Of a DNA stretch of 64,000 bases, positions 92-38,170 are shown one piece after another. Location of the stretch: contig CALXOX010000004.1 in assembly GCA_944390125.1 (NCBI GenBank), positions 23,875-87,874 on the forward strand, read 5' to 3'. Each line of letters starts with the position of its first letter. The first letter of the stretch is position 1. Below the pieces are notes generated by a model. That model saw nothing but the letters and a program-made list of their open reading frames with translations, had not been told where the DNA came from and made no database searches. The DNA is from an uncultured Alphaproteobacteria bacterium (GTDB taxonomy: Bacteria > Pseudomonadota > Alphaproteobacteria > Rs-D84). A program made the position numbers and the translations under genes.

Positions 92-460
92 ATGAAAGAC
101 TACGAAATGGGATATATGAAACCACCAAAATCAGGACAGTTTCGTCCTGGTCAATCGGGTAACCCCAAGGGGCGACCAAAGGGCAGTAAAAATACATACA
201 AGTTATTGGATGAAATTTTAAACGAAAAAGTTCAAATCGTTAAAAACGGCAATCCAATCAAAATACCTAAAAAGTTGGCGATGTTATTACAGGCGGCAAA
301 CAAAGCGGCCAAGGGTGACCTAAAAGCTCTTCAGATTTTAATCCCCTTGATGATAGAGGCGGATAATAAAAATGAAGAACTGGCCAAGGTCGCGGCGACC
401 ATCCGCCAGGATGACATGACCATAGTTAAACAATTTTTAAAGGATAATAAAAATGGATAA
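92..460 (+). CDS. Phage/GTA terminase small subunit-like protein (DUF5681-like, Gly/Pro/Lys-rich N-terminus)
   Basis: 122-aa ORF with N-terminal motif KPPKSGQFRPGQSGNPKGRPKGSKN typical of DUF5681/terminase small subunit-like proteins; stop overlaps start of the large terminase gene (453) by 8 nt, suggesting coupling. Confidence 0.5.
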   Translation: MKDYEMGYMKPPKSGQFRPGQSGNPKGRPKGSKNTYKLLDEILNEKVQIVKNGNPIKIPKKLAMLLQAANKAAKGDLKALQILIPLMIEADNKNEELAKVAATIRQDDMTIVKQFLKDNKNG

Positions 461-1889
461 AAATATATTTAACGCAATATTGCGTACGGATTTTAAGTCT
501 TTTGTCATAAAGGTGTTCAATGAGGTATCGCCCGGCTCAACATATATGGATAACTGGCATATAGACGTTATCTGTGATGCCGTTATGAATATGTATGATG
601 GCGAAAATCGACGTTTAATAATAAATATGCCACCGCGATATATGAAAAGTATAATTTGTTCGGTTGCGTTGCCTGCATGGCTGTTGGGACACAATCCCAA
701 ACTAAACATAGGATGCGTCAGTTATAACGATGAATTGGCGGCTAAATTTGCCAATAATTGCCGCGATGTTATGCAATCCGATTGGTATCGCGATTTGTTT
801 CCGATGACGCGCCTGCACCCGTCAAGACAGGCTATAAATGACTTTGAAACCACCCATGGTGGTGGCCGAATGTCCACTTCAATTGGCGGTACATTTACGG
901 GACGTGGGGTCGATTGGCTGATAATCGATGATCCGCAAAAGGCCTCGGATGCGAATTCAGAGGTTGCACGAACGAAACTAAACGATTGGTTCGGTACAAC
1001 CGCATATTCGCGCCTTAATGACAAGGCAACAGGAAAGATTTTGCTGGTTATGCAACGTTTGCACCAAGATGACCTGACCGGGCATTTATTGGATACCAAT
1101 TCAGGGTTTAATGTTATAAAACTCCCTGTTATTGCGACCGAGGATGAGACTTGGATAATTAAAAATCGAATTTTCGGTATAACACAGACAATCATTCGCG
1201 AACAAGGTGAACTGTTGCATCCTGTGCGTGAGAATACGCAAATTGTGGCGGAAATAAAGGAATCTATGGGAGAGTATGCATTTGTTGCACAATATCAGCA
1301 AGATCCATGCCCGCCAGAAGGCGGAATTGTCAAAGAGTCGTGGCTGAAATATTATGAGGATGCTGCCATAAATTCGCGACTTCAACCGAAGCACGTGTTT
1401 ATCAGTTGGGATACAGCTAATAAGACGGGTGATAATAACGCGTATTCTGTTGGGTGTGTAATTCTTATGACAAACAACTATAAATTTTACCTAATAGATA
1501 TAATTAGAGGGAAATGGGATACGCCGCAATTATTTGATAAAATAATAGAGGTATATAATGAATATAAATATAACCAACAGGCCGGCAATTATGTGAAATT
1601 GTTGATAGAGGACAAGGCTAGTGGCGAGTTCCTTATCCCGATGTTAGGTAAGGCACGTGATCGTGTCGGTCGGCGGATAGAGGTTGTACCCATTAAACCC
1701 ACGATAGATAAAATATCTCGCGCAAAGGCATTAGGTGTTATGATTGAAAAAGGGAATTTGCTATTTCCACAAAAAGATGAAGCCTGGTGGCAAAATTGTA
1801 AAAAGGAACTACTGGGGTTCCCAAATACAAAATATAAAGATCAGGTTGATGCCATGTCACAGTGTATAAACTATGCTATGCAACAATAA
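453..1889 (+). CDS. Phage terminase large subunit (Terminase_6/GTA-like): ATPase + RNaseH-like nuclease
   Basis: 478 aa; ATPase region (MPPRYMKS Walker A-like, LIIDDP Walker B), C-terminal nuclease with acidic residues (WDTANKTGDNNAYSVG ... KDQVDAMSQ); no portal/capsid genes follow, only an oppositely oriented lipoprotein gene. Confidence 0.8.
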   Translation: MDKNIFNAILRTDFKSFVIKVFNEVSPGSTYMDNWHIDVICDAVMNMYDGENRRLIINMPPRYMKSIICSVALPAWLLGHNPKLNIGCVSYNDELAAKFANNCRDVMQSDWYRDLFPMTRLHPSRQAINDFETTHGGGRMSTSIGGTFTGRGVDWLIIDDPQKASDANSEVARTKLNDWFGTTAYSRLNDKATGKILLVMQRLHQDDLTGHLLDTNSGFNVIKLPVIATEDETWIIKNRIFGITQTIIREQGELLHPVRENTQIVAEIKESMGEYAFVAQYQQDPCPPEGGIVKESWLKYYEDAAINSRLQPKHVFISWDTANKTGDNNAYSVGCVILMTNNYKFYLIDIIRGKWDTPQLFDKIIEVYNEYKYNQQAGNYVKLLIEDKASGEFLIPMLGKARDRVGRRIEVVPIKPTIDKISRAKALGVMIEKGNLLFPQKDEAWWQNCKKELLGFPNTKYKDQVDAMSQCINYAMQQ

Positions 1890-1920: not shown

Positions 1921-2343
1921 TCAATCTTCTTTCTGTTCAACGATACAATCCCTTTCCCATGAAAAACATTCTTGTTTTTGAATATCTTTTTTGGCGCAAT
2001 CCCCATAATACACAGGAACGGTTCTTTGGGCACTTGTCGCCGTTGTAAATGAGAATGATTTACGTGTATTCTCCAAAATTCCAGACCATACATAGTATTG
2101 GCCATCAACCCATTCATTCTCGTATTTACAATTCTCCAGAATCAATTTAACACTGTATACAACACCCCATTTTTCTCCTTGTGGTCCCAGATAGCCAACA
2201 TTCGCCAATGCAACTTTTTTTGTGCCTGACTGGTCAAGCACCTGATGAACATAAGCCCAATGTTTGACCTCTACATCTCTGGTTCCTGTGGTACAAGAGG
2301 TTAAGCTCAATAATCCTAATATAAAAAATGATACTTTTTTCAT
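1921..2343 (-). CDS. Putative lipoprotein
   Basis: MKKVSFFILGLLSLTSCTTG: signal peptide with lipobox (LTSC). Confidence 0.5.
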   Translation of the reverse strand: MKKVSFFILGLLSLTSCTTGTRDVEVKHWAYVHQVLDQSGTKKVALANVGYLGPQGEKWGVVYSVKLILENCKYENEWVDGQYYVWSGILENTRKSFSFTTATSAQRTVPVYYGDCAKKDIQKQECFSWERDCIVEQKED

Positions 2344-2347
2344 TTTG

Positions 2348-3031
2348 CTACTCCTTTGGTGGTATTTTGACTAATAAAAATTTGAACAGGCCGTTTTGTG
2401 CAGGCATCTCATAGAAATCCTGCCAAGTAAATTCATAGTTGTTCCTGATATCCAAATTTGGACGCGTTTTTAGCAATTTTTCTGGATTTGTGCAGTTGGC
2501 TAAATTCCAGTTATATTCCCCTTTGTATTTGGCTCCGGGGCTTATGCGAAATACATATGCCTGAGTTTTTATATTGCATTTGCCGTTCCAATAATATTTG
2601 TCATTGGCGATGCATATAAAGATACCACTGTGGGCAAAGCCACTATTTACCAATTTCTCTATACGCGATATGTCTTTCCAACAGTCATAACAGCCTTCGT
2701 CTTCGGCGCCTTGCGGTTTTAATATATCTCTTACTGGAATGCCGGTATCCTCATATTCTGCTTCAGAGTCTATTCTGTCGGTCTTGTACTTCAACTCAAT
2801 GGGGAATCTTTGACCATCGGCAACAATCAGAATATCAATATAAATCATCCGCCACTGCGTATCGTAAATACGTACTGGAAATTCGCGGTATATTTTAACG
2901 TCTGGGCGATCTTGAAATACCTGCATCAGTTCCCAGGTAAAAGATGCCTGAAAATCCGCCTCTGATACAAAAAAGCGATGTTTTTGCTTCAGGTTTATAA
3001 ATGCCGAAACAATAGATTTTGTAATATCCAC
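2348..3031 (-). CDS. Hypothetical protein with PD-(D/E)xK nuclease-like motif
   Basis: 227 aa; motif YIDILIVADGQRFPIELKYK gives D...E-x-K spacing typical of the restriction-endonuclease fold; no other recognisable domain. Confidence 0.35.
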   Translation of the reverse strand: MDITKSIVSAFINLKQKHRFFVSEADFQASFTWELMQVFQDRPDVKIYREFPVRIYDTQWRMIYIDILIVADGQRFPIELKYKTDRIDSEAEYEDTGIPVRDILKPQGAEDEGCYDCWKDISRIEKLVNSGFAHSGIFICIANDKYYWNGKCNIKTQAYVFRISPGAKYKGEYNWNLANCTNPEKLLKTRPNLDIRNNYEFTWQDFYEMPAQNGLFKFLLVKIPPKE

Positions 3032-3049
3032 ACCAATTCCCTGTTTTTA

Positions 3050-3270
3050 TAAATTAATGACCGTCAACGGAATTGACGGCCGGGGAGTTGGTGTCAGCAA
3101 ACGAATGCTCCGTGCTTTCGGGCAAGCCCTGTTGTATAGCGAACGGCTCCCCGACCACAGTCGGGGGATTTTAACGACAAATTTGTGCCGCGTCTGCGGG
3201 CCACCACAGCCCCGAACCCAATTCCCATTGGATTCAGAGAAAAGTGTACCGCTAGAAACAAAGTAAATCA
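3050..3270. ncRNA. GC-rich (~58% GC) structured element of unknown class in an AT-rich intergenic region; candidate non-coding RNA
   Basis: Perfect hairpin ccgtcaa-cggaa-ttgacgg, 7-bp closing helix cggggag...ctccccg, repeated accacag motif flanking tcggggg...ccccga helix. Only short overlapping ORFs on both strands (69/74 aa) with odd composition. No tRNA T-loop, RNase P P4, SRP domain IV or B12-box motifs found. Confidence 0.3.
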
Positions 3271-3311
3271 AGTTGATTTATTGTAATATGTTATGGATTT
3301 GATGTTATCAT

Positions 3312-4049
3312 ATGTTTATACTTAATAAGTATAGCATAAGGAACAAAATGTCATTTGATAACTGTGATTGTCAAAATAATGTTGCGTCTATGACGGATTT
3401 TTTTAGTGGACTAGACCCAGTAAAAAAGAAAATCTGTGAAATACTAAAAACTTTTAGTAATGACGCAGAAGATGCATACAAAGCTGCGATTTACATCTGG
3501 CAAATCCCTGATTTTCCGGCAAAGCAATCTATTGTTGCTCATTGTCTAGTAAATGTGATGGATGCAATAAATGAATATTCTGAAGATATTTTAAAAGGGC
3601 AATTATTTGACGCATTAAAAACTGTAGATTTTGTGAAAGAATCGGAAAAAACGGACTCAGACATTAACAAAATAATAACGTCTTTATGGAACCAAGGACT
3701 AAAAAAACTATATGATGAAAAAGTTAAAATGCGCGCGCTTTATATGGATAGAAATCCAACATTTGAACGTATGATGAAAGATGAAACTGTGGTGCAAGAA
3801 AAGAAACAGCAGATAAAACGGGAATTTGAAAAGAAAGCAGAAAAAATAAATTTTGCCAAGAGGGGGGATAATAGTTTAAATTCTTGTAGGCATTTGAATA
3901 TAAAATTTCATAAAATATCAGATTCTGAATTTGGCAATCATATAAGCAATATAGAAAACTATATTTTAGAATTAGATAATCCGCTATATCTTGAAAAAAA
4001 GGAAGTCTTGGATGGGATACTGGAAAGCGCCAACACAAAATCAGATTGA
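3312..4049 (+). CDS. Hypothetical protein (245 aa); possible start at MSFDNCD (3348)
   Basis: ORF with no recognisable motif; 3' end overlaps the start of the next ORF by 38-59 nt, suggesting an operon. Confidence 0.4.
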   Translation: MFILNKYSIRNKMSFDNCDCQNNVASMTDFFSGLDPVKKKICEILKTFSNDAEDAYKAAIYIWQIPDFPAKQSIVAHCLVNVMDAINEYSEDILKGQLFDALKTVDFVKESEKTDSDINKIITSLWNQGLKKLYDEKVKMRALYMDRNPTFERMMKDETVVQEKKQQIKREFEKKAEKINFAKRGDNSLNSCRHLNIKFHKISDSEFGNHISNIENYILELDNPLYLEKKEVLDGILESANTKSD

Positions 4050-6891
4050 TTTAGTTCTTAAGCATATTCAAGGAAATCTTAAGGCACAATTTTTTGCAAA
4101 ATTGGAAAATCCTTTATGGTTTGAAGAACTAAAAAAATACGAAGGATTGCTCTGGTATGAAACTATCCCAGGAAATGGTGACACTGACGATAGCTATTCG
4201 TGGCCAGCACTACCATATCTGATAAGAACTGCTTCAGAGAAACCAGTAGACATATACAATTTCTTACAGCCTTTAATAGATAAAATAAATGCGTGTACTA
4301 TTGAATCTTTTTGGTTCGCTCAAATGCTTGTTTTTTCAATTGCACCAAAGATGCCCGATGAACAATTTGTGACAATTATATCTGCTTTTGTATCATATAT
4401 GGAACAAATAAAATATATAGGGTGGTTCGATTATAGAGAATTGCCTATAGTGTTTGAAAGACTAAAAGGGATTGAACCGAAATTAGCGGATAAACTTGCT
4501 CATAATTTGCTGTGCGTTCATCTGGAAAAGTGGGGTGAACATGGCCTCTTAAATATTGTATCAAAATACGGAACAAATAATAGTTATAGATACAATGAAA
4601 TATTGAATTTAATGGAAAAGCTGTATGATAATGACTCAATTAAATTGTTTGATATTTTAATTCAAGTAATCAGTCATGACTTATATAAGGGCGTTTTGGA
4701 CGAAGACAGGAATAGGCATGAATATTGTGGGTATATTTATCGTCCTGCCATTGAAGATCACGCACAAAACCACTTCAATTATGAATTGGAAGACAATATC
4801 ATTAATATGATTAGAAATCTGGCGATGGAAATTCTGCATAAAGAACCAGAACAGATTGATTATGTTTTTAATAAGTTAGAGAGTTCTAATAGGCTGCTGC
4901 TAATTCGTGTCGCATTATATCTATTATCTAATTTAAATGATTTTGATGAAGCATTATTGTCAAAATATCTAACAAATTACGAATTTTTTGACGAATTAAA
5001 CTATCATCATGAATATTTTCATTTAATAAAAAATAAATTTAGTAAACTTTTGCCGGAACACCAAGAGCGTATACTCACTTATATAAAAAATGGGCCGATG
5101 GATGAATACTATAATATGGATGAGAAAAATTTTACTGCAGCAGACAAGCAAAAACGGTGGAAGTTTAATAAGTTGGTTCCAATTTTAGACCAATTGACTG
5201 ACGAACAGAAAGAGCCTTTTGTCAGTGTGCTTTTTGATGCGGACGGAAAGCCTTTGGAACCGGAAATCCACCCAGATTTTTTAAGTTGGATGGGAGATTT
5301 TAAGCCTGTTGTTCATAAATCTCCAGTTAACACAGAAGATATTAAAGATATGTCCATTGAGGAAATTGTTACTATTATGCAGAGCTGGCAACCGGTTAAA
5401 GATAACTGGATAAATGGAACTAGTCGACCAGGCTTAGCCAATACTATACAAGAAGATATTAAACAAAACCCTAAAAAATATATTCTGGAGCTAGAGGCTT
5501 TCCAATCTATATCTGAACCGACATATGTGCGTGCGATTATTCGCGGAATTTTGGAGTCTGGTATCAAAGAAGATGAAGATTGGATTAAACTTATAAAGTT
5601 TTGTGAGACAATTTTAATTCATGATGAAAATTTTGAAGGTCGCGATCCATTCCATGATGGTGATGATAGTTGGTATTGGGCAAAACAGGAAGTCGTGTCG
5701 GTTTTTAGTGCGGCTTTTCGTGAAAAAAATAATTTGTCTGGGGTTGATAGCGCCTTTCTTGAAGGTGTATATAAGGCTCTTAAAATGCTTGTTGAAGCTC
5801 AGGATGAAAATTTAGAGAAAAAAAGAACGGAAAATATCCCAGATCGTTTGCACACAGCAATAAATTCTCTGCATGGCCAAGCTGTGGAAGCCTTATTGAT
5901 ATATGTCTTATGGTTAAAAAATAATGATAAACCAAGAGAGCAAATTTTCCCTCTTTTGACCAAATTAGCATCAGAATCTCGCTATTTGGAAACGTTTGCA
6001 ATAATAGCGCGAATGATTTCATATATGGACTATGCTATTCCAGAGTGGGTTGTAGCTAATATTAATAACATATTTCCTACGGAGATAGGAAAAGAAGAGA
6101 TATTTAAAGCAACATGGCATGCATTTATTTTATATGGTCGGCAGTGTAAGTCTCTGTTTAAATTGTTAGAAACTAAATTTGCTTATGCTTTGAGTGCCGA
6201 TTGGTGGGATGCGGATGAAGGCAAACGGATTAGAGAGCGTACAGCCCAAGGGCTGGCATATTATTATGGGTGGGGAGCATTTGCGTTAGATTCTATTTTA
6301 GTGGAGTTGATCTTTAATTCGACAGATAAACAGATAGAACAAGTAGCCTTTATCAATTATATCGGTTTTTCGCTATGGGATAGAGATGGCCGAGGGGATG
6401 AGATTTCTAAGGATGTCTTGGCTCGTTTTATGAATTTGTGGGAATGGTTCATTGAAAAAATAAAAGATCATAGAGCTGATTATAAAAAAGTATTAGTCGA
6501 ATTTGAACGTTGGTATCAATGTGGAAGGTTCAAGGACGGTGGATGGGGAATAAATCAATTACATAGCTTGGTTATGGATGATGAACTTAAATTGACCATG
6601 TCATGTTTTATGTTAGAGGATAATTTATTGGAAGATTTGCCGCAATCTCCAAGGAAGGTATTTGATATTATTTCGCGTCTCGTATTGCGTGGGGATAGAT
6701 CTGATACCTTTAGCAGAAATGACATTGTAGAAAAAACATTGGAATTTATAAAAAATAATGATTTTCCAGATGATATGTTGTTAAAAAGTGACAAAGATTC
6801 TTTTATAAATAAAATGCTGGAACAATCTGAGGCTTGGGAGCTAGAGCAAAAAGAAGAGAGTTTTAATAGATACCTAGAAAATAGATATTGA
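3991..6891 (+). CDS. Large hypothetical protein (966 aa, predicted alpha-helical; no recognised catalytic motif)
   Basis: Long uninterrupted ORF with AT-rich codon usage consistent with the genome. Overlaps upstream ORF (alternative start ATG at 4012). No Walker, DEAD, HxD or nuclease motifs seen. Confidence 0.5.
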   Translation: MKKRKSWMGYWKAPTQNQIDLVLKHIQGNLKAQFFAKLENPLWFEELKKYEGLLWYETIPGNGDTDDSYSWPALPYLIRTASEKPVDIYNFLQPLIDKINACTIESFWFAQMLVFSIAPKMPDEQFVTIISAFVSYMEQIKYIGWFDYRELPIVFERLKGIEPKLADKLAHNLLCVHLEKWGEHGLLNIVSKYGTNNSYRYNEILNLMEKLYDNDSIKLFDILIQVISHDLYKGVLDEDRNRHEYCGYIYRPAIEDHAQNHFNYELEDNIINMIRNLAMEILHKEPEQIDYVFNKLESSNRLLLIRVALYLLSNLNDFDEALLSKYLTNYEFFDELNYHHEYFHLIKNKFSKLLPEHQERILTYIKNGPMDEYYNMDEKNFTAADKQKRWKFNKLVPILDQLTDEQKEPFVSVLFDADGKPLEPEIHPDFLSWMGDFKPVVHKSPVNTEDIKDMSIEEIVTIMQSWQPVKDNWINGTSRPGLANTIQEDIKQNPKKYILELEAFQSISEPTYVRAIIRGILESGIKEDEDWIKLIKFCETILIHDENFEGRDPFHDGDDSWYWAKQEVVSVFSAAFREKNNLSGVDSAFLEGVYKALKMLVEAQDENLEKKRTENIPDRLHTAINSLHGQAVEALLIYVLWLKNNDKPREQIFPLLTKLASESRYLETFAIIARMISYMDYAIPEWVVANINNIFPTEIGKEEIFKATWHAFILYGRQCKSLFKLLETKFAYALSADWWDADEGKRIRERTAQGLAYYYGWGAFALDSILVELIFNSTDKQIEQVAFINYIGFSLWDRDGRGDEISKDVLARFMNLWEWFIEKIKDHRADYKKVLVEFERWYQCGRFKDGGWGINQLHSLVMDDELKLTMSCFMLEDNLLEDLPQSPRKVFDIISRLVLRGDRSDTFSRNDIVEKTLEFIKNNDFPDDMLLKSDKDSFINKMLEQSEAWELEQKEESFNRYLENRY

Positions 6892-6918
6892 TATAACAAA
6901 ATATATTTATTTTATGTC

Positions 6919-7680
6919 TTACTCTGAATCTTGTTGTGTAATTTGTTGTAGCATGCGAATCAGCGTTCTAGATGTTATAAAACGTACGCATTTTTCATCG
7001 TCTGAAGCTCGTATTATCATACCAAGAACATCATTGTTATCGTCTAATACTGCCCCGCCACTGTATCCATTGAATGTAGCATGGCAATCATTTTGCTCAA
7101 AACTTAGTAAGCCTTGTTCTAATTCAAGTTCTTCTACATTTTCTGATTTGATTTTTATTAAGCACAAATAACGAGAAGATAATCGGATTATCTTATTTTC
7201 TTTGTCCATCTCTGCATCGGGGTATCCATATATTTTGTATTTGCTCCCTATTCTTAGAGGTTGAGTTGATAAGTTTAATGCCTCTATTCCCGATAATGAA
7301 GTGCCTTTATTATTCTTTAGTCTTTCTTCGTCTATACAAAGGAATAAGATATCAAATATTTTACCAACATTTTTTTCAATTGCTCGATGAACAAAATTTA
7401 TAGGAATTCGCCAGCAGTTAGGCGCTCCAGTAAAACCAAAAGAACAATTTTCTTCTATAACAGATTTTATCATGTCGTGCGATATATTGTTGTCATCAAT
7501 TATTCCGATTTTTGCGTAGCGATGTTTTATAATATTGCGAATGCAATGCCAGGCAGTTACAATAAATCTGGTTCCATTATAATGTAATAAATATGCTGTT
7601 CCACGAGTTTCATGAACCCAGCCATCACCATTTTCTAATGCTATAGGAAAAATAGATTTTAGAAGTATATTATCATTCAT
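6919..7680 (-). CDS. Trypsin-like (S1 family) serine protease
   Basis: 253 aa; His motif TAWHC, Ser motif GYSGGAV (GDSGG-like), cytoplasmic (no signal peptide). Start 20 nt downstream of the DUF488 gene stop on the same strand. Confidence 0.6.
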   Translation of the reverse strand: MNDNILLKSIFPIALENGDGWVHETRGTAYLLHYNGTRFIVTAWHCIRNIIKHRYAKIGIIDDNNISHDMIKSVIEENCSFGFTGAPNCWRIPINFVHRAIEKNVGKIFDILFLCIDEERLKNNKGTSLSGIEALNLSTQPLRIGSKYKIYGYPDAEMDKENKIIRLSSRYLCLIKIKSENVEELELEQGLLSFEQNDCHATFNGYSGGAVLDDNNDVLGMIIRASDDEKCVRFITSRTLIRMLQQITQQDSE

Positions 7681-7700: not shown

Positions 7701-8126
7701 TTATAGATGTACAATCTCAATATCCGGGAATTGCTCTGCGATGTATTCAGCGGCGAGGCGGCGGTGGCATTGCATGGCGGACTTTTCCATGCATAACAGG
7801 CAGACGCGGTCAATGTTGTCGGGTGTCAATCCGGCGGTTGGGTGGCGCGTGGCCAGTAATTCACGATACATACGCTCATAATCGGGCCAGGTGATTTTGC
7901 CGTTTTTATATCCAGCCAGTATTTCCGCCGTTGGTGCAAATTCGGGGTGATGTTCATAACGCGTGCCCAGTGCTGCGACCAGTTTTTCGCCACTGTAAAA
8001 TGGCACATAGGTACTGGTGCGCCACAGGCGCACATCCCATACGGTACGGATGCGCACCGCATTCAGAACATCCATAAATGCATCTGGGCTCTTGCCGCTA
8101 AAACCGATTGTAAATATCTTTGCCAT
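7701..8126 (-). CDS. DUF488 family protein (copy 1)
   Basis: 141 aa; N-terminal IFTIGFSGK and C-terminal CLLCxEKSAxQCHRRL motifs characteristic of DUF488; ~75% aa identity with 21886..22311. Confidence 0.6.
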   Translation of the reverse strand: MAKIFTIGFSGKSPDAFMDVLNAVRIRTVWDVRLWRTSTYVPFYSGEKLVAALGTRYEHHPEFAPTAEILAGYKNGKITWPDYERMYRELLATRHPTAGLTPDNIDRVCLLCMEKSAMQCHRRLAAEYIAEQFPDIEIVHL

Positions 8127-8127
8127 A

Positions 8128-8778
8128 TCAATATAAAAATAGTCCGTTTAGCATCAAATAGCAATGATTTTCCTGCATCAGGAACTTTCGTGCCAATCCT
8201 ATACGACAATGGGCATATTGACTAGCCGCAATAGCATTGTTTAGGGTCGCGACATCTTTATCTTTTTCAAATATATCGCGCAAGTATTTGCAACTGACCT
8301 TTAATTCATAGGTTTGGTTTGAAAAATCCGTGATACGGGCACGTAATTTGCCGTCTTCTGTAAAGAATTCAATATTGTGTGCCGGAATCAATATGGCACC
8401 CAACGAAGGGCATTTGGTTTTCTGTGGTACATAGGCGTTTTCCTTGACGTGATGATGAAATATGCCCTGTATATCTTTTGAAACGCTATTGTGCAAAGCA
8501 TTGGCCAGCTCTTTTCCTGGCTCAAATTCTTGCAAAACCTCGATGGAGTCAAAGTCTATATTTACGTCCTCGGTTCGGTGGGGATAGTCACGCGGTTCTT
8601 TGAAATCCTCGTTATCGACGAGTATTTCGCAATATGTGGTCGGAATCTGACTGGCATCCCAGTATCCGCCGTCCAACATCAGGCGTTTCATACGTTTTTC
8701 ATAGGTGTCAAATCCGGCAATACAAAATTTTTCTTTCATACATGTTATGTCAGAGATAATGATATTCGATTTTTTCAT
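8128..8778 (-). CDS. Hypothetical protein (216 aa), partner of DUF488 (copy 1)
   Basis: Stop/start 1-nt gap with DUF488 gene; ~85% identical to 22313..22963; no recognisable domain. Confidence 0.5.
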   Translation of the reverse strand: MKKSNIIISDITCMKEKFCIAGFDTYEKRMKRLMLDGGYWDASQIPTTYCEILVDNEDFKEPRDYPHRTEDVNIDFDSIEVLQEFEPGKELANALHNSVSKDIQGIFHHHVKENAYVPQKTKCPSLGAILIPAHNIEFFTEDGKLRARITDFSNQTYELKVSCKYLRDIFEKDKDVATLNNAIAASQYAHCRIGLARKFLMQENHCYLMLNGLFLY

Positions 8779-11628: not shown

Positions 11629-14124
11629 GTGACAATGACATTTGATAAGCTGCGTGATGACAATGAAGCGTACGCACGATTGAAGATAAATCAGAAATTG
11701 CATGATGCGGGTTGGTTTTTGACAGATACCCCAGATCATAAGCGAAACGTGAACGTTGAACAAAAGGTTGATGCGGGGTTTGCTGATTACGAACTGTTGG
11801 ATTCAAATGGTTTTCCTTTGTGTATTATAGAGGCGAAAAAGCCGTCCATAAATCCATTGAGTGCAAAAGAACAGGCGCGTCGTTATGCGGTTGAACATAA
11901 TATAAGATTTGTTGTTTTATCAAATGGTGAAATTTATTATTTGTGGGATATTAAGTCTGGAAACCCTCAAATTATAACACAGATACCAACACAAGAATCT
12001 TTGGAAATGCGCAGTGGTTTTGATCCAAGCACCAAAGATATAATGAAAGAAAATATAATTCCAGAATATGTAGCATTACAGAAGAATCCGCGTTTGTTGG
12101 ACATTCCAGAATATCAGAATCCAGAAACTCGTGGTGCATATTGTTGGAATAATGGGTTGCGCATATTGCGAGATTATCAACTTGGTGCAATACAGGCAGT
12201 GCAAAAAGCTATTGCTAATGGTCAAGACAGGTTCTTGATTGAAATGGCAACAGGACTTGGTAAAACATTGACCGCTGGTGCGATAATTCAAATGCTATTA
12301 CGCACAGGCCATGCACACAGGGTTTTGTTCTTGGTCGATCGTATTGAATTGGAACGCCAAGCGTATAAAAATTTTAATGATTATTTGTGCGATTTTATCA
12401 CAGTTATTTATAAAGAAAAGTCTGAAGAATGGCACAAGGCGGATATTGTTGTTTCAACTATTCAGACATTGATGGCAGGTGATAAATATAAAAAGTTTTC
12501 ACCAACTGATTTTGATTTTATTATATCCGATGAAGCACATCGTTCAATTGGCGGCAATAGCCGTGCTGTATTTGAATATTTTATTGGGTATAAATTAGGC
12601 TTGACTGCGACACCGCGTGATTACATCAAAAATGTGGATGTTGATAAAATAAAGCTCAATGACCCAAAAGCTCTTGAGCGTAGATTGTTACTGGATACAT
12701 ATGAAACATTTGGTTGTAAAAGCGGAACGCCAACATATAAATATTCAATGGTTGACGGTATAAAAAATGGTTATTTGGTTGCTCCTATGGCCATTGATGC
12801 GCGTACAGATATAACCACACAAATGTTATCTGAAAAGGGCTATCATGCTATTGGCGTTGATGAAAATGGCGAAGATGCCGAAGCCGATGTTGTTGTAAAG
12901 GATTTTGAAAAACGCTTTTTTAATGAAAATATAAATGCTGTATTTTGCAAAGCATTCTTAGAAAATGCAGAACGTGATCCAATAAGTGGCGAAATTGGAA
13001 AAACGTTGGTGTTTTGTGTCAGTCAATCGCACGCTGCCAAGATAACACAAATTTTAAATGAGTTTGCTATGCAGGCGTTCCCTGGAAAATATAACAGTGA
13101 TTTTGCGGTTCAGGTTACCAGCAATGTTCAAAACGCCCAAGATATGACGAACCAGTTTATGACAGATAGTAATAATCTGGGTGGAAAATCTACATTTTTA
13201 GAGGGCTATGATACGTCAAAAACTCGTGTATGTGTAACTGTTGGAATGATGACAACTGGTTATGACTGCAGTGATTTATTAAATATAGTATTTATGCGCC
13301 CGGTATTTTCACCAACTGATTTTGTACAAATGAAAGGACGTGGAACTAGAAAATATACATTCAAGTATATTGATGCTGATAAAAACGAAATAAAAAAGGA
13401 AAAAGAACACTTTAAACTTTTTGATTTCTTTGGAAACTGTGAATATTTTGAAGAAAAATTTGATTATGGTCAGCAGTTAAAGCTACCACAATTATCCAAG
13501 GGTGTTACTGCTGGAACTTCTGGGCAGGTGCGTACCTTTACAACATTGACATCAGAAGAAATTACAAAGCTTGTTCAAATGGAAACACTTGCTATACCTG
13601 ATAATGGCATGCGTATTGATCGTGAATTCTGGGGCAATTTCCAAAAAACAATTAGCGCCGATGCAGACATAAAAAATGCGGTCGACAATTCCGATTGGGA
13701 TTATGCGGTAGCCCTGGTTAAAGAAAAATACGAAAACAAGCCAGAATTATATCCTAACCTGGAACGGATTAAAAAGGCGACAAAATTGGACCGCCGTTTA
13801 TCTTGGCGCGAAATATTGGAACACATATTCGGTTTACTGCCCCGGTTTAAGACACGCGATGAAATGTTAGAAGACGAATGCGATAAATACATATCCATCG
13901 TTAAACCTGCACCTGAAATAGTTCCCTCTATTAAAAATTTTATAAAATTGTATGTTACAGATAACACATTTCGTGATATAATAGAAAAACAGGAATACCC
14001 AAGGCTTAACGCTGAAATTCCGGGTTTTAGTATGCAGGATTTAAAATTAATGGGCAAAGATATTCGCGAAAATTTACCTGAATACATCAAAGAAAATATC
14101 GTTTTAAATAAATATATGGGGTAA
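11629..14124 (+). CDS. hsdR: Type I restriction enzyme R subunit-like: N-terminal PD-(D/E)xK nuclease + SF2 helicase
   Basis: N-terminal DYELLD...CIIEAKK (D-E-x-K), Walker A EMATGLGKT, DEAH box SDEAHRS, motif VI QMKGRGTR; 831 aa; the M-S gene starts 5 nt after its stop. Confidence 0.75.
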   Translation: MTMTFDKLRDDNEAYARLKINQKLHDAGWFLTDTPDHKRNVNVEQKVDAGFADYELLDSNGFPLCIIEAKKPSINPLSAKEQARRYAVEHNIRFVVLSNGEIYYLWDIKSGNPQIITQIPTQESLEMRSGFDPSTKDIMKENIIPEYVALQKNPRLLDIPEYQNPETRGAYCWNNGLRILRDYQLGAIQAVQKAIANGQDRFLIEMATGLGKTLTAGAIIQMLLRTGHAHRVLFLVDRIELERQAYKNFNDYLCDFITVIYKEKSEEWHKADIVVSTIQTLMAGDKYKKFSPTDFDFIISDEAHRSIGGNSRAVFEYFIGYKLGLTATPRDYIKNVDVDKIKLNDPKALERRLLLDTYETFGCKSGTPTYKYSMVDGIKNGYLVAPMAIDARTDITTQMLSEKGYHAIGVDENGEDAEADVVVKDFEKRFFNENINAVFCKAFLENAERDPISGEIGKTLVFCVSQSHAAKITQILNEFAMQAFPGKYNSDFAVQVTSNVQNAQDMTNQFMTDSNNLGGKSTFLEGYDTSKTRVCVTVGMMTTGYDCSDLLNIVFMRPVFSPTDFVQMKGRGTRKYTFKYIDADKNEIKKEKEHFKLFDFFGNCEYFEEKFDYGQQLKLPQLSKGVTAGTSGQVRTFTTLTSEEITKLVQMETLAIPDNGMRIDREFWGNFQKTISADADIKNAVDNSDWDYAVALVKEKYENKPELYPNLERIKKATKLDRRLSWREILEHIFGLLPRFKTRDEMLEDECDKYISIVKPAPEIVPSIKNFIKLYVTDNTFRDIIEKQEYPRLNAEIPGFSMQDLKLMGKDIRENLPEYIKENIVLNKYMG

Positions 14125-14128
14125 TAAG

Positions 14129-16540
14129 ATGCTGGACGCCAGAACCAAACAAACCATTGATAACGCTTGTGATACGTTGGTTGGAAGAGTACCAAGCCCG
14201 CAGACACAGGTTGATATTATTACAACCGCATTGATTTATAAGTTTATGGACGATATGGACTTGGATGGTTTGGAATTATCGGGCAAACGCACGTTCTTTG
14301 TTGGCGATTTGGAACCATACGCATTTTCAACCGTCGTTAACACCAAGGGAAATCAAGAACGTATGAACTTGTATTTGACGGGACTTGAAAAAGTTCAGAT
14401 AGCCAAGTCAGTACCAGAATTATTTCGTCGTATTTTCAAAGAAGCGAATATTCCGTTCCGTGACCCAACAACATTTGCATTGTTTTTAAAGGAAATTAAT
14501 GAGTTAAAATATGATGATTCAGAAAAAATTGGCGATGCATTTGAATATTTATTAAACAAAATGTCTACTGCGAAGAATGCGGGACAATTTCGTACACCAC
14601 GCAATATAATTGACTTTATTGTTGATGTGGTAAAGCCGACAAAAAACGATACGATATTGGATCCTGCATGTGGAACGGCGGGCTTTTTGATTTCTGCATA
14701 TAAACACATTACATCAGACGGTAAATTAACACCGGACGAATTAAAACGGGTTACAAACAGCATTGTTGGATTGGATATTGACCCAACAATGGTAAAATTA
14801 AGTTTGGTTAACCTGTATCTGCATAAATTTGAACAACCCAATATTTATGAATATGATACATTGTCCATTGATGCGCGTTGGGGTGACAGATATGATGTTA
14901 TTTTGGCAAACCCACCGTTTATGACGCCAAAGGGTGGAATCACACCACATAAACGCTTTGCAATCAATGCAAACCGCAGTGAAGTATTGTTTGTTGATTA
15001 TTTTATGGAACATTTAACAATCAATGGTCGCGCCGGTTTTGTTGTTCCCGAAGGGATTATATTCCAAACCGCAAACGCATATAAAGATTTGCGTAAAATG
15101 ATGTTGGATGGTTATCTGTATGCGGTTGTGTCGTTACCTGCGGGTGTATTTAATCCATATGCCGGTGTAAAAACATCAATATTATTCTTTGACCGCGCAT
15201 TTGCAAAACAAAATAAAGATATATTATTTGTGCGTGTTGATAATGATGGATTTTCCCTGGGCGCACAACGCACACCAATTAAACAAAACGATTTACCCGA
15301 AGCGTTAAAGATTATCAATGAATACCGCGATGGTAAAGATGTATCGGGTTATGAACGCGCAATGGTTGTATCCAAAGAACGCATTGCCGAAAACAATTAT
15401 GATTTAACCGCTGCAAAATATATTGAAAAAGAAACGCGCGAATGCAAATATGAAATGGTTAAATTGGGTGATGTTTGCGAATTGTTAAATGGGTATGCGT
15501 TTAAAAGTGAATTATATACAGATACAGGTATTCGTGTAATGCGTATAACCAATGTGCAAAAAGGCGAAATTGTTGATGATAACCCAAAATTTTATCCTCT
15601 GGACAAACAAACAGAAATACAAAATTATATGTTACGCGAAAATGACTTACTTGTATCTTTAACGGGTAATGTCGGGCGTGTTGGTTTGTTGCCAAAGGAA
15701 TTATTACCTGCAGGATTGAATCAACGCGTTGCATGTTTAAGACCTGATGAAACCAAAATTTTGAAAGGGTATCTTTTCAGTGTGTTAAACCAAGACAAAT
15801 TTGAACACGATTGTATTGAATCATCTGGTGGTATAGCGCAAAAGAATCTAAGCACAGTTTGGTTGCAAAATTACGATATCCCACTCCCACCGTTGGATGT
15901 GCAGCAGCAGATTGTGGATGAAATTGAAAACAAGCAATCTGCAATCAACCATGCGCGTGAAATCATTAAAAATCTAGAAAGAGAGAGATTCTATTTTGCC
16001 GGCTTACTTGATGGGATAAATTACAACAAAGTAAAATTAGGCGATTTGTTAGATTACGAACAGCCAACAAAATATATTGTCAGTAGCACAGAATACGACA
16101 ATAAATATAAAGTTCCCGTTCTTACGGCAGGACAATCGTTTATTCTTGGGTATACAGATGAAACAGATGATGTTTTTGAAAATGTACCAGTAATTATTTT
16201 TGATGATTTTACAACTGCGTCAAAATATGTGAATTTCCCTTTCAAAGTAAAGTCATCCGCAATGAAAATTTTACATAATCACGATTCAAATGTAAGCGAT
16301 TTGAAATTCATTTACACAATGATGCAAAATATTACATTTGATAGTTCGACGCACAAAAGATATTGGATTTCTGAATTTTCTGACATTGAAATTCCATTGC
16401 CATCTATTGAAGACCAGAAGCGGATTGTTGCGAAATTGGAAGCGGAACAGGAAATTATTGACGCAAATAAACGCTTGATTGATTTAATGCAAGATAAAAT
16501 CAACCAGGTTATAAACCGTATTTACAAGTGTGACATGTAA
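14129..16540 (+). CDS. Fused N6-adenine DNA methyltransferase (HsdM-like) + specificity subunit (HsdS-like, two TRDs) of Type I-like R-M
   Basis: 803 aa; SAM motif DPACGTAGFL and catalytic NPPF (ANPPFM) in the N-terminal ~430 aa. The C-terminal ~370 aa holds two target-recognition domains (VKLGDVCELLNGYAF... and VKLGDLLDYEQ...), each followed by the HsdS conserved helix (PLPPLDVQQQIVDEIE, IPLPSIEDQKRIVAKLE). Confidence 0.75.
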   Translation: MLDARTKQTIDNACDTLVGRVPSPQTQVDIITTALIYKFMDDMDLDGLELSGKRTFFVGDLEPYAFSTVVNTKGNQERMNLYLTGLEKVQIAKSVPELFRRIFKEANIPFRDPTTFALFLKEINELKYDDSEKIGDAFEYLLNKMSTAKNAGQFRTPRNIIDFIVDVVKPTKNDTILDPACGTAGFLISAYKHITSDGKLTPDELKRVTNSIVGLDIDPTMVKLSLVNLYLHKFEQPNIYEYDTLSIDARWGDRYDVILANPPFMTPKGGITPHKRFAINANRSEVLFVDYFMEHLTINGRAGFVVPEGIIFQTANAYKDLRKMMLDGYLYAVVSLPAGVFNPYAGVKTSILFFDRAFAKQNKDILFVRVDNDGFSLGAQRTPIKQNDLPEALKIINEYRDGKDVSGYERAMVVSKERIAENNYDLTAAKYIEKETRECKYEMVKLGDVCELLNGYAFKSELYTDTGIRVMRITNVQKGEIVDDNPKFYPLDKQTEIQNYMLRENDLLVSLTGNVGRVGLLPKELLPAGLNQRVACLRPDETKILKGYLFSVLNQDKFEHDCIESSGGIAQKNLSTVWLQNYDIPLPPLDVQQQIVDEIENKQSAINHAREIIKNLERERFYFAGLLDGINYNKVKLGDLLDYEQPTKYIVSSTEYDNKYKVPVLTAGQSFILGYTDETDDVFENVPVIIFDDFTTASKYVNFPFKVKSSAMKILHNHDSNVSDLKFIYTMMQNITFDSSTHKRYWISEFSDIEIPLPSIEDQKRIVAKLEAEQEIIDANKRLIDLMQDKINQVINRIYKCDM

Positions 16541-17360: not shown

Positions 17361-19304
17361 ATGCATATTTCTACGATAAAAATTAAAAACTTTCGATTGT
17401 TAAAGGATTTTTCCATAAATCTTGAAAAAAATCTTTCTATAATTATTGGGAAAAATAATACAGGTAAAACGTCTTTTGTTCTGGCACTAGAAAAGTTTTT
17501 AAAAAATGGGAAAATAGATTTCTATGATATAAATACAGATTTTAAAAATTATTTAGCTACATTATTAAAAGATATGCTTTTGTTGAAGGAAGAGAATTTT
17601 AATGCCATTGGGGAACTTGGTATAATCCTGGAAATGGTGATAGAATATGATGATAAAGTAGATAGTTTAGAAAATTTATCAAAATTTATTACTGATTTGG
17701 AGCCCGACAATAAAAAAGTATTTTTTAAATTTAAGTTTTTGTTAAATTATGACAATTATAAAAATATGCACAAAAAATTACAATCGGTTACAGAAAATGA
17801 AAAAAAAGAAAGTTATATAAAAAAACACCTTGCTGAAAATCTGATATGGAAGGCGTATTCATATTATGAAGAAGAACGTTTTGAAAATATACATGAAATT
17901 AAGCCACATGATGCAGATTTAAATAAACTTTTAAATATTGAAATAATAAGGGCTCCAAGAGATTTTGTAAAGAATAACTCTAAAACCCTTTCTGTTCAAT
18001 CAAGTGATTACTTTAGAGCTCGGTCAAAAAATGATTCAAAAGTCTTGGACCGGTTTTCAGAAGCCTTAGAAAAAATAGATAAAGATTTAAAAACAGAATA
18101 CGACGTCATTTATAAAGATGTTTTTGATAGCATAAAAAAATATATTGATGATGATTCTATAAATCCGGAGGTAATACCTGAACTAAATGCCGAAAAAATC
18201 ATTGGGGATAACACAATAGTAAAATATCAAAACGATTTACCGGAGTATAATAATGGGCTAGGATATTTAAACCTGATTTCTATATTGCTTGAAATACACT
18301 TATATGTAGAAAAATTAAGCGGTAAGGCTTCAAAACCGGACATATTTTTGTTGTTTATTGAAGAGCCTGAGGCTCATACGCACCCTCAGATGCAATATAT
18401 TTTTATTAAAAACATCAAAGAATTGTTAAAAAAACAATCTTTTCAAAGTATTATATCTTCACATTCTTCGCATATCGTTTCTAATTCAGATTTTGAAGAT
18501 ATTAAATATTTTTATTTTAACCATAAATTAAAAACGGTAGACTCAAAAAATATTTCTGAGCTTATGTCAAAAATTGGGAAAGATCATTTTGCTTTTTTAA
18601 AGAAATATCTTACTTTGAATTCAGCAGAATTGTTTTTTGCAAACAAAGCAATTTTTATCGAAGGTGATAGCGAAAGGATACTTTTACCAAGTTTTATTAA
18701 AAAAATTAGCGCTGAACCAGATTTTTCTAATGCAATATATCAAAATATAAGCATTATTCATGTTGGTGGTGCTTATGCGCATATATTCAAACCATTAATG
18801 AATTTTTTTGATATAAAATGTCTTATAATTACAGATATAGATTATAAATTGACAGCAATTAAAAGCAAAGATGCTACCGGGAAAACAAAAATTACTGGTT
18901 ATAAATCTAATTTGTCAAAAGGCATTACAAATCAAACTATCAAAAAGCTAATCCGTAAAAATTCATCAACTGCTGAAGATCTTATAGAAAAGGCAGGAGA
19001 AGAGATTCAAAAAAACAAAATATATATAGCTTTCCAAAAAGATGGGACAAGGTCTTTCGAAGATTCTTTTTTTGAAAAAAATAGAGAGTTTATATTAGAC
19101 AATAAAAACGGTTTTAAATCTTTAAAAAAACGGTCTAAAATTGATACATATAAGGATAAATTTGGTTTCTCAGATAATTTTATTTCGAAAAAAACCGATT
19201 TTGCTACAGATATTTTATATCATTCAAATTCAGATTTAACTAATTGGGATATTCCTGATTATATTTCGAACGGATTAAAGTGGTTGTTAAAGGACGATAA
19301 ATAA
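17361..19304 (+). CDS. gajA: Gabija GajA: OLD-family ATPase + TOPRIM endonuclease
   Basis: Walker A IIGKNNTGKTS near N-terminus, Walker B/Q-loop region LLFIEEPEAHTHPQMQ, TOPRIM motif AIFIEGDSERILLP; 647 aa; directly followed by a UvrD-like helicase gene. Confidence 0.8.
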   Translation: MHISTIKIKNFRLLKDFSINLEKNLSIIIGKNNTGKTSFVLALEKFLKNGKIDFYDINTDFKNYLATLLKDMLLLKEENFNAIGELGIILEMVIEYDDKVDSLENLSKFITDLEPDNKKVFFKFKFLLNYDNYKNMHKKLQSVTENEKKESYIKKHLAENLIWKAYSYYEEERFENIHEIKPHDADLNKLLNIEIIRAPRDFVKNNSKTLSVQSSDYFRARSKNDSKVLDRFSEALEKIDKDLKTEYDVIYKDVFDSIKKYIDDDSINPEVIPELNAEKIIGDNTIVKYQNDLPEYNNGLGYLNLISILLEIHLYVEKLSGKASKPDIFLLFIEEPEAHTHPQMQYIFIKNIKELLKKQSFQSIISSHSSHIVSNSDFEDIKYFYFNHKLKTVDSKNISELMSKIGKDHFAFLKKYLTLNSAELFFANKAIFIEGDSERILLPSFIKKISAEPDFSNAIYQNISIIHVGGAYAHIFKPLMNFFDIKCLIITDIDYKLTAIKSKDATGKTKITGYKSNLSKGITNQTIKKLIRKNSSTAEDLIEKAGEEIQKNKIYIAFQKDGTRSFEDSFFEKNREFILDNKNGFKSLKKRSKIDTYKDKFGFSDNFISKKTDFATDILYHSNSDLTNWDIPDYISNGLKWLLKDDK

Positions 19305-19305
19305 T

Positions 19306-21023: not shown

Positions 21024-21869
21024 GTGGTTATGTTCAAAATATCAAAATCTGATTATGTATTGGGGGTTAAGTGCCCAAATGCAATATGGTTTAAAAAACT
21101 GCGCAAGGATTTGCAGCCAGAATTCAACACTGCGTTATTAGAGCAGGGTAATGCCGTTGGTGCATTGGCTCGTTCCAAGTACCCAGATGGCGTTCATATA
21201 ACCGATTTGCCTTGGGAACGTTCCGCGGTTCTTAATACCCAGCGCGCCATAGATAACAATGCCCCATACATATACGAAGCAACAATGGCAACAAGCACAG
21301 GTGAATATTGCGCCGTAGATATATTAAAGAACAATAATGACGGTACCTGGGATATCATAGAGGTAAAATCAACCACCAAACCCCACGATTATCACTATAT
21401 AGACATATCGTTTCAAAAGTACGTATTCAGCAAGTGTGGTCTGCAAATTCGTGATTGTTGGATTTTGACTTTGAATCCTGAATATGTGCGTCATGGCGAA
21501 TTAGATGCACAAGAACTGTTTATCGCCCACGACGCATCAGCAGAAATGCAATCTATGGAAACGGTCGCATCAGAAGTTGAACGTATAAGAAACATCTTAA
21601 ACGGGCCAGAATTAGGTATTGCTATATCCAAGGCCAAGTGCAATAAGTTTTACGAGTGCAGTTATAAAAATCATTGTTGGCGTAATGTTCCGCCTTATTC
21701 TGTGTTTGATGCCTTCAAAGTGGCTTTGGCAGATGAAATATATGCAGAATACGGGCCAGATTTGGCAAATGTTCCGGCTGACCAGTATGTTCGACAAATG
21801 CGCAGCGGGGATATAGAGGCTTTTTTAAGCAATCAAGAAATCTGCAACCCAGATATCTTGCGTCAATAA
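21024..21869 (+). CDS. Stand-alone Cas4/RecB-family PD-(D/E)xK nuclease-like protein with Cys cluster
   Basis: N-terminal Cys (GVKCPNAIW), motif II CAVDIL, motif III DIIEVKST (E-x-K), QxxxY (FQKYVF), C-terminal C-x5-C-x5-C (CNKFYECSYKNHC); no cas1/cas2 or CRISPR nearby. Confidence 0.5.
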   Translation: MVMFKISKSDYVLGVKCPNAIWFKKLRKDLQPEFNTALLEQGNAVGALARSKYPDGVHITDLPWERSAVLNTQRAIDNNAPYIYEATMATSTGEYCAVDILKNNNDGTWDIIEVKSTTKPHDYHYIDISFQKYVFSKCGLQIRDCWILTLNPEYVRHGELDAQELFIAHDASAEMQSMETVASEVERIRNILNGPELGIAISKAKCNKFYECSYKNHCWRNVPPYSVFDAFKVALADEIYAEYGPDLANVPADQYVRQMRSGDIEAFLSNQEICNPDILRQ

Positions 21870-37973: not shown

Positions 37974-38068
37974 GACTTCCTCTCTTTTGTATTTCATTCT
38001 AGAAAAAAAGCTATATATCACGCAAGAGAAAAAGTAAAAAAAATCACATTGGTATAAAAATAAAAAAA

Positions 38069-38093: not shown

Positions 38094-38170
38094 TGGTGGG
38101 TTAGGTAGGACTTGAACCCACGACCAAAGCGTTATGAGCGCTCCGCTCTAACCAACTGAGCTACTAACCC
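38094..38170 (-). tRNA. tRNA-Met (anticodon CAT); elongator type, could alternatively be tRNA-Ile2 (lysidine)
   Basis: 77 nt; GGGTTAG acceptor stem, anticodon loop CTCATAA, T-loop GTTCAAGTC, 3' CCA encoded. Confidence 0.8.

Follow-up and report, generated by a model that had tools for sequence, protein, structure and literature searches.

We analyzed a 64,000-nucleotide (nt) stretch of DNA, hereafter the window, from an uncultured Alphaproteobacteria bacterium (contig CALXOX010000004.1), and this revealed two overlapping open reading frames (ORFs), ORF1 and ORF2, that probably encode a two-protein anti-phage system of the DSR1 type in which SIR2 is replaced by a separately encoded helical domain. 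DSR1 (defence-associated sirtuin 1) was reportedly described by Gao et al. in 2020. ORF1 (positions 3348-4049, + strand; 233 amino acids, aa) specifies an all-helical N-domain, presumed to be the effector or an effector-coupling module, and ORF2 (positions 4012-6891, + strand; 959 aa) specifies the predicted DSR1-type alpha-solenoid sensor. A preliminary description made from the sequence alone had assigned the two genes to an uncharacterised anti-phage or effector system, an assignment that gains support from the homology of ORF2 to the DSR1 sensor domain and from a defence-rich mobile context. It had also called the pair dark matter, which still applies to the effector half but not to the sensor half, whose family was characterised experimentally in 2026. 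Published work thus accounts for the sensor half.

Link of ORF2 to the DSR1 sensor

Using ORF2 as the query, we found 30 proteins only, 16 of which matched the PADLOC Dsr1 models (best E value, 6e-107), while none of the 14 sequences of the window's own clade gave a PADLOC Dsr1 match, which explains why the locus had looked dark. The earlier impression of a gene pair with no recognisable domains therefore holds for the window proteins themselves, since direct Pfam, NCBIfam and PADLOC searches yielded no significant match for ORF1 or ORF2, but it does not hold for the family. The connection is best seen at locus L012, whose sensor, P0023, was found by the ORF2 search at E 6e-19 and matched the PADLOC Dsr1 model PDLC04166 over positions 335-1191 of 1,227 (E 3e-98). 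The SIR2_2 gene of this locus, which overlaps the sensor gene by 4 nt, matched Dsr1 positions 5-283 (E 8e-48). Since the sensor and the overlapping SIR2 gene match complementary regions of the Dsr1 model, L012 is a split DSR1. In addition, a family member with a fused N-domain (L032) matched the C-terminal region of Dsr1 at E 5e-47.

The window clade and the SIR2-linked sensors were then aligned separately and compared by hhalign, which related the two groups of solenoids with a probability of 100% (E 6e-82) over 838 aligned columns. The NCBIfam Dsr1 model NF041818, which has an equivalog cut-off of 1,400 bits, matched family members at E 1e-12 to 1e-17 with 21-63 bits, and these matches covered the region holding the most conserved motifs of the family. 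These results indicated, at the level of sequence comparison, that ORF2 is homologous to the DSR1-type sensor and, by extension, that it would belong to the Avs7/Dsr1 sensor family by transitive homology through Dsr1.

To define the extent of the ORF2 family, a profile was built from the 30 ORF2 homologues and used for an exhaustive search of 1.84 billion cluster representatives, which recovered 9,178 proteins with E <= 1e-3, 4,505 of them with E <= 1e-30. The members span bacteria and archaea and are either ~950 aa long or ~1,130 aa long with an N-terminal extension. In the work of Lee et al. (Nature 2026), the Dsr1 sensor is common to the STAND protein Avs7 and to ~9,000 NTPase-less proteins, and the effectors located N-terminal to the shared sensor comprise NADases, nucleases, kinases, a HEPN-like RNase and unknowns (PMC12803255, PMC13581612). 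The same study reports sensor models with bilobed, sharply bent helical repeats, and shows that EcDsr1 and SeAvs7 are both triggered by the phage major capsid protein, that effector mutations eliminate defence, and that in Avs7 structures two lobes clamp an HK97-fold protein, a movement that relieves autoinhibition (PMC12803255, PMC13581612). Its text leaves two-gene forms (a sensor-only protein plus a separate effector) unmentioned, and as its curation dropped 'partial proteins', two-gene forms may have gone too (PMC12803255, PMC13581612).

The AlphaFold2 model of ORF2 (mean predicted local distance difference test score, pLDDT, 86.7) was almost wholly helical. Foldseek comparison with the PDB retrieved importin-beta, CAND1, SF3b and other HEAT/ARM solenoids at low TM-scores, a result that, judged from the model, fixes the fold class and nothing more specific. 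A PDB sequence-profile search with the solenoid profile found no solved relative. The predicted structure thus presents ORF2 as a HEAT/TPR-like all-alpha solenoid, and structure prediction with Foldseek bears out the HEAT/TPR fold that the preliminary description had considered for the pair.

Exchange of modules in the slot before the sensor

Sensor loci were surveyed by a pattern-plus-tblastn scan of one genome per species, which yielded 80 loci; together with L012 and L013 these made 82 loci, a set biased toward the window's branch. The ORFs were scored with local hidden Markov models for the solenoid and the N-domain. The surveyed loci came from Acidobacteriota, Planctomycetota, Actinomycetota, Patescibacteria, Nitrosopumilus and other taxa. 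An N-domain fused to the sensor filled the slot before it in 31 loci, and an N-domain encoded as a separate upstream gene did so in 33 (overlaps of ~1-120 nt, mostly within 1-38 nt). An upstream non-N-domain gene of 306-420 aa was present in another 11 loci, all of these being SIR2_2 proteins, and the slot was truncated or could not be assigned in the remaining 7. Hence, non-SIR2 N-domain forms outnumber SIR2 forms by 64 to 11 in this branch-biased survey. About half of the N-domain forms are two-gene systems, which protein-centred censuses tend to discard as 'partial'.

The type of module did not track sensor phylogeny. Sensors with fused and with split N-domains were often mutual nearest neighbours, and the nearest neighbours of 3 SIR2-linked sensors were N-domain-linked sensors. 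Pairwise comparisons gave discordant identities for the two halves. While the window and L001 share 74% identity in the sensor and 40% in the N-domain, the window and the fused proteins of L007 and L015 share 41-42% in the sensor and 49-50% in the N-domain. Most strikingly discordant were L014 (split, HCFRE type) and L015 (fused, HCLVN type), whose sensors are 96% identical and whose N-domains are 42% identical. The sequence identities indicate that the N-domain and the sensor have separate histories, with two N-domain alleles exchanged between sensor lineages, and the fused or split state changes along with the N-domain allele. The L014/L015 pair, carrying the two alleles on near-identical sensors, is a ready-made swap experiment.

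Three further observations were made on module arrangement. A metagenome-assembled genome of Lentisphaerota (JBFZFB01) holds two paralogous DSR1-type systems, L020 and L042, with sensors that are 60% identical; the upstream slot is taken by a helical N-domain gene in one and by a SIR2 gene in the other, an effector exchange seen side by side. P0165 (1,617 aa) has a complete pyruvate kinase, with PK barrel and C-terminal domain, after its DSR1-type solenoid and may be a gene-calling fusion. P0129 and P0021 have an additional HTH_3 or LexA DNA-binding domain on the N-terminal side of the N-domain.

The helical N-domain of ORF1

Five of the 30 ORF2 homologues are 1,191-1,196 aa long, and ORF1 is 50% identical to residues 1-232 of one such fused homologue, the 1,195-aa P0010. 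Since ORF1 aligns to the N-terminus of the fused proteins, ORF1 and ORF2 are one protein in other genomes. Thus, what had been described as a gene pair is indeed two genes in the window, but it amounts to one functional unit, which many genomes encode as a single fused protein. The N-terminal extensions of the ~1,130-aa family members form one homologous group, to which ORF1 was related by hhalign profile-profile comparison (91%, E 1e-6).

In the joint N-domain alignment (A2), two histidines were invariant across very diverse phyla. The first lies in an H-x-x-R-E motif, with R and E each at least 90% conserved, and the second in A-H-(R/H), for which the ORF1-like branch has R-H. In the window, the first invariant histidine is His65 in the motif AHCLVN (positions 3537-3554, + strand), where the Arg-Glu is lost, and the second is His182 in the motif CRHLN (positions 3885-3899, + strand), at the other invariant column. 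L001, L009 and L011 read HCFRE where the window ORF1 reads HCLVN.

A per-member Pfam scan of 24 N-domain members returned PF18165 (pP_pnuc_1) as the sole recurring family; it was matched by 9 of the 24 with a best E value of 8e-4, all below the gathering score of 26.3 bits. The N-domain resembles pP_pnuc_1, a predicted pPIWI-associating nuclease of conflict systems, in being a small all-helical domain, and differs from it in that no pPIWI gene lies near the window pair. A literature search on pP_pnuc_1 found nothing. No HEPN family was among the top 25 Pfam families in the per-member scan at E <= 1, and the motifs H-x-x-R-E and A-H-(R/H) differ from the HEPN motif R-x(4-6)-H. Likewise, no SIR2 or SIR2_2 match was obtained for ORF1 or ORF2 at E <= 0.1, and a PDB sequence-profile search with the N-domain profile revealed no meaningful relatives. 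Outside the sensor systems, a large homology search recovered the N-domain only as stand-alone or truncated copies and in no other architecture. In the full-length model of the fused homologue P0010 (pLDDT 82.6), the N-domain was a helical bundle in which the two histidines sit on different long helices, the first close to where its helix begins and the second close to where its helix ends.

Because the N-domain is found in the slot before the sensor that SIR2 occupies, ORF1 is most likely the effector of the system, as far as gene order and alignment can tell. For its chemistry, a nuclease-like activity employing the two invariant histidines is our leading guess, weakly held and suggested by these residues together with the weak pP_pnuc_1 similarity.

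Near-invariant polar residues in the sensor

The most conserved stretch of the ORF2 family is a loop motif, RPAIEDHAQN, at residues 244-253 (positions 4741-4770, + strand), for which the family form is W-R-P-A-I-E-D-H-x-Q-N. In a sample of 250 diverse family members, R244, E248, Q252 and N253 were conserved at 93%, 94%, 87% and 85%, respectively. The motif falls in a lower-confidence loop of the AlphaFold2 model and lies where the NCBIfam Dsr1 model matches (positions ~590-760). A second motif, HHEYFHL (residues 332-338; positions 5005-5025, + strand), is part of a near-invariant polar cluster, in which H333 is 91% and E334 100% conserved. R268 (positions 4813-4815, + strand; 94%) and R299 (positions 4906-4908, + strand; 100%) also belong to this cluster. 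The near-invariant polar residues are all located in the N-terminal third of the sensor.

Since the cluster is equally conserved in SIR2-linked sensors, it is unlikely to be the effector, judging from the alignment; a reasonable guess is that it could serve the resident effector, of whatever type, as a docking or switch site. A zincin metallopeptidase, with HHEYFH read as HExxH, was also considered and rejected, because the second histidine is replaced by leucine in 111 of the 250 members. The Pfam scan showed no peptidase family match in ORF1 or ORF2.

Proposed system and the role of ORF1

The binding of ORF1 to ORF2, the identity of the trigger, the role of ORF1 as effector and its chemistry are what we infer in the following scheme. 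ORF1 and ORF2 would form a resting complex; during infection, the ORF2 solenoid would bind a phage structural protein; by analogy, our best but loosely held guess is the HK97-fold major capsid protein. A conformational change of ORF2 on binding would release or activate ORF1, whose activity would then halt phage replication or kill the cell.

This arrangement resembles DSR1 in several respects: a homologous alpha-solenoid sensor of ~900-950 aa, with the conserved RPAIEDHxQN / HE core lying in the region of the curated Dsr1 model; a small N-terminal module followed by a large sensor; and a setting of defence islands and mobile elements. Unlike DSR1, the window pair is devoid of SIR2 and has instead a ~165-230-aa all-helical domain with two invariant histidines, and therefore NAD+ depletion is not expected. 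Its modules are also separate, translationally coupled genes, and its clade is too divergent for a direct match to the Dsr1 model, NCBIfam giving no match. As in the Avs7/Dsr1 superfamily, interchangeable N-terminal modules occur on homologous sensors (31 fused, 33 split and 11 SIR2). In contrast to Avs7, no STAND NTPase was present in ORF1, ORF2 or the fused homologues scanned; therefore, the pair is not an Avs.

In DSR2, an N-terminal effector is restrained by a C-terminal alpha-solenoid that binds a phage structural protein, the tail tube (PMC11850899, PMC11087589). The window pair may be like DSR2 in outline, by analogy, as an effector combined with a large alpha-solenoid sensing a phage structural protein. 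It differs in that ORF2 and its homologues have no Dsr2 model match and represent a different solenoid family with a different effector, and in that DSR2 is a single chain forming tetramers rather than a two-gene pair.

Several findings weigh against a DSR1-type system. The window proteins match no defence model in Pfam, NCBIfam or PADLOC, and the DSR1 link runs via homologues at ~20-25% identity, so that the trigger may differ from a capsid protein. A search of IMG/VR viral contigs gave no relatives of the pair. With regard to ORF1, the Arg-Glu that follows the first invariant histidine in > 90% of members is absent, and therefore the window allele may be catalytically altered or non-enzymatic. 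In the Pfam scan the window ORF1 itself had no pP_pnuc_1 match, and the sub-threshold pP_pnuc_1 similarity is the only database echo of the N-domain.

An alternative is that ORF2 is a defence sensor and ORF1 a regulatory, oligomerisation or adaptor module, with growth arrest coming from an unlinked partner, from a neighbouring gene such as the protease, or from the solenoid polar cluster. Such a division of labour would fit an allele devoid of the near-universal Arg-Glu of H-x-x-R-E, an N-domain that no enzyme family matches above threshold, and an LmuA-like/RT-protease-like protease convergent to ORF2; moreover, a polar cluster (R244, E248, Q252, N253, R268, R299, H333 and E334) would be unexpected in a pure shape-recognition scaffold. 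However, that cluster is just as conserved in SIR2-linked sensors, where SIR2 is clearly the effector, and the N-domain sits in the exact slot that SIR2, a proven effector, takes in sister loci. Its two histidines are invariant across very diverse phyla, and L001, L009, L094 and L095 share no third gene next to the pair. We therefore regard a non-effector ORF1 as unlikely.

A two-protein DSR1-type system with ORF1 as its effector could be specified further, and here we are tentative: it is possible that the N-domain represents a class of effector not characterised before, acting as a separate subunit that docks on a capsid-type sensor without a covalent bond, that the LVN allele acts by a different, possibly non-enzymatic mechanism, and that the polar cluster (R244, E248, R299, H333 and E334) is the docking or switch site through which target binding is linked to whichever effector is in place, whether SIR2 or N-domain and whether fused or free. 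The LVN allele is conserved, selected and exchanged between sensor lineages despite the lost Arg-Glu.

All but the activity of the N-domain fits modular sensors with interchangeable effectors. Annotation by PADLOC, NCBIfam and Pfam overlooks an entire clade of DSR1-type systems, both because its sensor is divergent and because another module stands in place of the SIR2 hallmark. With the split forms, nature provides a system for studying how a capsid-type sensor controls an effector held non-covalently.

Start sites and translational coupling of ORF1 and ORF2

Mechanical ORF calling placed ORF1 at 3312-4049 (245 aa) and ORF2 at 3991-6891 (966 aa), both on the + strand and with the ORF2 reading frame at +1 relative to ORF1. 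ORF1 most likely starts at the ATG at 3348, and the upstream ATG at 3312 appears an unlikely start: ATG 3348 is the start in the database homologues P0031-P0036, and the alignment with L001 begins at the same Met. A Shine-Dalgarno-like sequence, TAAGGAA (positions 3337-3343, + strand), lies 4 nt before this ATG, and AGGAAC upstream of ORF1 is kept in L094 and L095. Further upstream, a putative -10 box, TATACT (positions 3317-3322, + strand), ~26 nt from the ORF1 start, may belong to a promoter of the pair's own; TTAnACT upstream of ORF1 is invariant in 5 of 5 aligned lineages, and a consensus promoter scan showed no full sigma-70 match at the candidate -10 region 3317-3322.

For ORF2, the sequence points to the ATG at 4012 as the most likely start, which gives a protein of the same length as P0001 (959 aa). 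An internal Shine-Dalgarno sequence, AAGGAAG (positions 3999-4005, + strand), lies within the 3' end of ORF1, 6 nt before ATG 4012, and the equivalent site reads AGGAGG in L001 and L009. The two genes consequently overlap by 38 nt (positions 4012-4049, + strand), an overlap that suggests translational coupling. The preliminary description had given an operon with an overlap of 38-59 nt; both ORFs are present, the refined starts yield the lower bound of that range, and the operon assignment agrees with the coupling.

Compared with L094 and L095, relatives at ~80% identity, the ratio of nonsynonymous to synonymous substitution rates (dN/dS) was 0.16-0.22 for ORF1 and 0.18-0.19 for ORF2. ORF1 and ORF2 are real genes under purifying selection, and a pseudogene was rejected by the dN/dS range of 0.16-0.22. 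The two-gene layout is retained in L001, L009 and L011 (74%, 61% and 43% identity, respectively) and was found again in relatives as distant as 38-43% identity. The closest relatives of the pair came from gut and rumen metagenome assemblies of uncultured Alphaproteobacteria.

The sequence context indicates that ORF2 is produced by translational coupling and not by frameshifting, because it has its own Shine-Dalgarno sequence and ATG. In L001, L009 and L011 a stop codon in the ORF2 frame directly precedes the ORF2 ATG (T-TAG-ATG-G), and this TAG excludes a frameshift upstream of the start. As a run of seven A's at 3994-4000 is not kept in L001 or L009, there is no case for programmed slippage. 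Programmed frameshifting or slippage on the A7 run was accordingly discarded on the conserved stop-ATG junction, the Shine-Dalgarno sequence and the unconserved run.

The same evidence bears on the idea that the pair is a broken, once-fused DSR1-like gene that is decaying or is rescued by +1 frameshifting or transcriptional slippage at the 3994-4000 A-run. Fused homologues of 1,191-1,196 aa do exist, and the ORFs overlap in different frames with seven A's in the overlap region, as this idea would have it. Nevertheless, both halves are under purifying selection, ORF2 carries its own Shine-Dalgarno sequence and ATG with a stop just before the ATG in L001, L009 and L011, and the A-run is not kept in L001 or L009. 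In addition, there are 33 independent split loci across phyla with varied overlaps (~1-120 nt, mostly 4-38 nt), and the SIR2-linked versions surveyed here are likewise two genes. A broken gene is thus very improbable.

The mobile element carrying the pair

Upstream of the pair, the window encodes DUF5681 and a large terminase (positions 453-1889, from the library scan), the latter described previously as an orphan. Window positions 92-1889 and L001 positions 2278-7619 place this 'orphan' terminase in a recurrent mobile-element backbone consisting of a large serine recombinase, DUF2924, a ParB_N-N6_N4 methylase, DUF5681 and the large terminase, with no other virion genes. In L001-L006, the ParB-methylase, DUF2924 and large serine recombinase precede DUF5681 and the terminase. 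Across assemblies, the backbone block sits at different chromosomal sites with differing defence cargo, and the terminase-bearing backbone may be a satellite-like or terminase-hijacking element. The pair is also found without the terminase backbone, in L007, L011 and L094.

That the pair is a non-defence helical scaffold riding in the island, such as a HEAT adaptor for a housekeeping or mobile-element function (e.g., packaging or partition), is hardly credible: the fold matches are all eukaryotic transport and scaffold HEAT proteins and the pair adjoins a terminase/ParB-methylase module, but sequence-level homology links it to DSR1 sensors, sister loci have SIR2 partners, the backbone is found with many other cargoes replacing the pair, and the pair occurs without the backbone (L007, L011 and L094).

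Just upstream of ORF1 lies a conserved GC-rich (51%) non-coding element (positions ~3045-3285; core, 3207-3232). The element is 89% identical to its counterparts in L001-L006, while the adjoining ORF1 proteins are just 40% identical. Its core, CAGCCCCGAACCCAAnTCCCnTTGGA, was present in 21 metagenome contigs, always at the boundary between the DUF5681-terminase backbone and variable cargo. A DSR1-like pair follows the core in 1 of the 21 contigs (from the same assembly as L001), and the cargo in the other 20 consists of a KAP NTPase + ApeA-like pair, AAA_13 with DUF2130, or unknown genes. Because the core precedes such varied cargo, the element forms one border of a hotspot where the mobile element carries alternative cargoes, among them the DSR1-like pair as one of many. 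An operon leader or riboswitch was rejected, since the element is backbone-borne and stands before unrelated cargo in 20 of 21 copies.

These findings agree with the accessory stretch named in the preliminary description, as the pair has other defence genes around it and occupies a hotspot where the mobile element carries variable cargo. The family is patchy, moves between contexts and, at this hotspot, is missing from 20 of 21 related elements; it did not prove to be a housekeeping family of the core genome.

The left half of the GC-rich element gave a full-length match, below threshold, to the Rfam family sRNA-Xcc1 (RF02221) on the strand opposite ORF1, scoring 27 bits in the window and 40 in L114 (gathering score, 53). 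On this opposite strand, the consensus fold is ~2 times as stable as on the ORF1 strand (-36.7 versus -18.0 kcal/mol), and a compensatory change from AAT/ATT to AAA/TTT keeps the terminal hairpin. The element probably corresponds either to a gene for a small RNA or to a region of the mobile element that contains a recombination site.

Neighbouring genes

A stand-alone, trypsin-like protease of 253 aa (positions 6919-7680, - strand) is convergent with ORF2, so both this protease and the upstream terminase, as previously described, are in place. The protease resembles the protease part of PADLOC LmuA (E 4e-10) and RT-Protease_XI (E 5e-9). The PD-(D/E)xK label given earlier to the gene at 2348-3031 was confirmed by no library. 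The gene downstream of the pair differs in each of L001, L009, L094 and L095. Neither the protease nor gene 2348-3031 is kept beside the pair in these four loci, and both were rejected as a third component.

The defence genes reported downstream of the pair were likewise found. A DUF488 protein (141 aa; PADLOC PDC-M45C, E 2e-34) and DuOB (216 aa) are encoded together at 7701-8778 (- strand) as a candidate PDC-M45, which may be a two-gene defence system in its own right; these genes stand beside the DSR1-like pair in L001-L006 and are absent in L009, L094 and L095. They are followed by a Type I restriction-modification (R-M) system with HsdR (831 aa) and a fused HsdM-HsdS (803 aa) at 11629-16540 (+ strand), and by a Gabija-like pair at 17361-20871 (+ strand), comprising an AAA_15-TOPRIM OLD-family ATPase (647 aa) and a UvrD-type helicase (521 aa). 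In other loci, the neighbours of the DSR1-like pair include Type ISP/IIG R-M, a KAP NTPase and Abi_C.

Elsewhere in the window, a Cas4-like nuclease is encoded at 21024-21869, and an alpha-type tmRNA at 43905-44263 marks the window as alphaproteobacterial. A 2,316-aa ORF at 31071-38021 (- strand) has a GC content of ~45% compared with 38% for the window, and it ends beside a tRNA-Met gene at 38094-38170.

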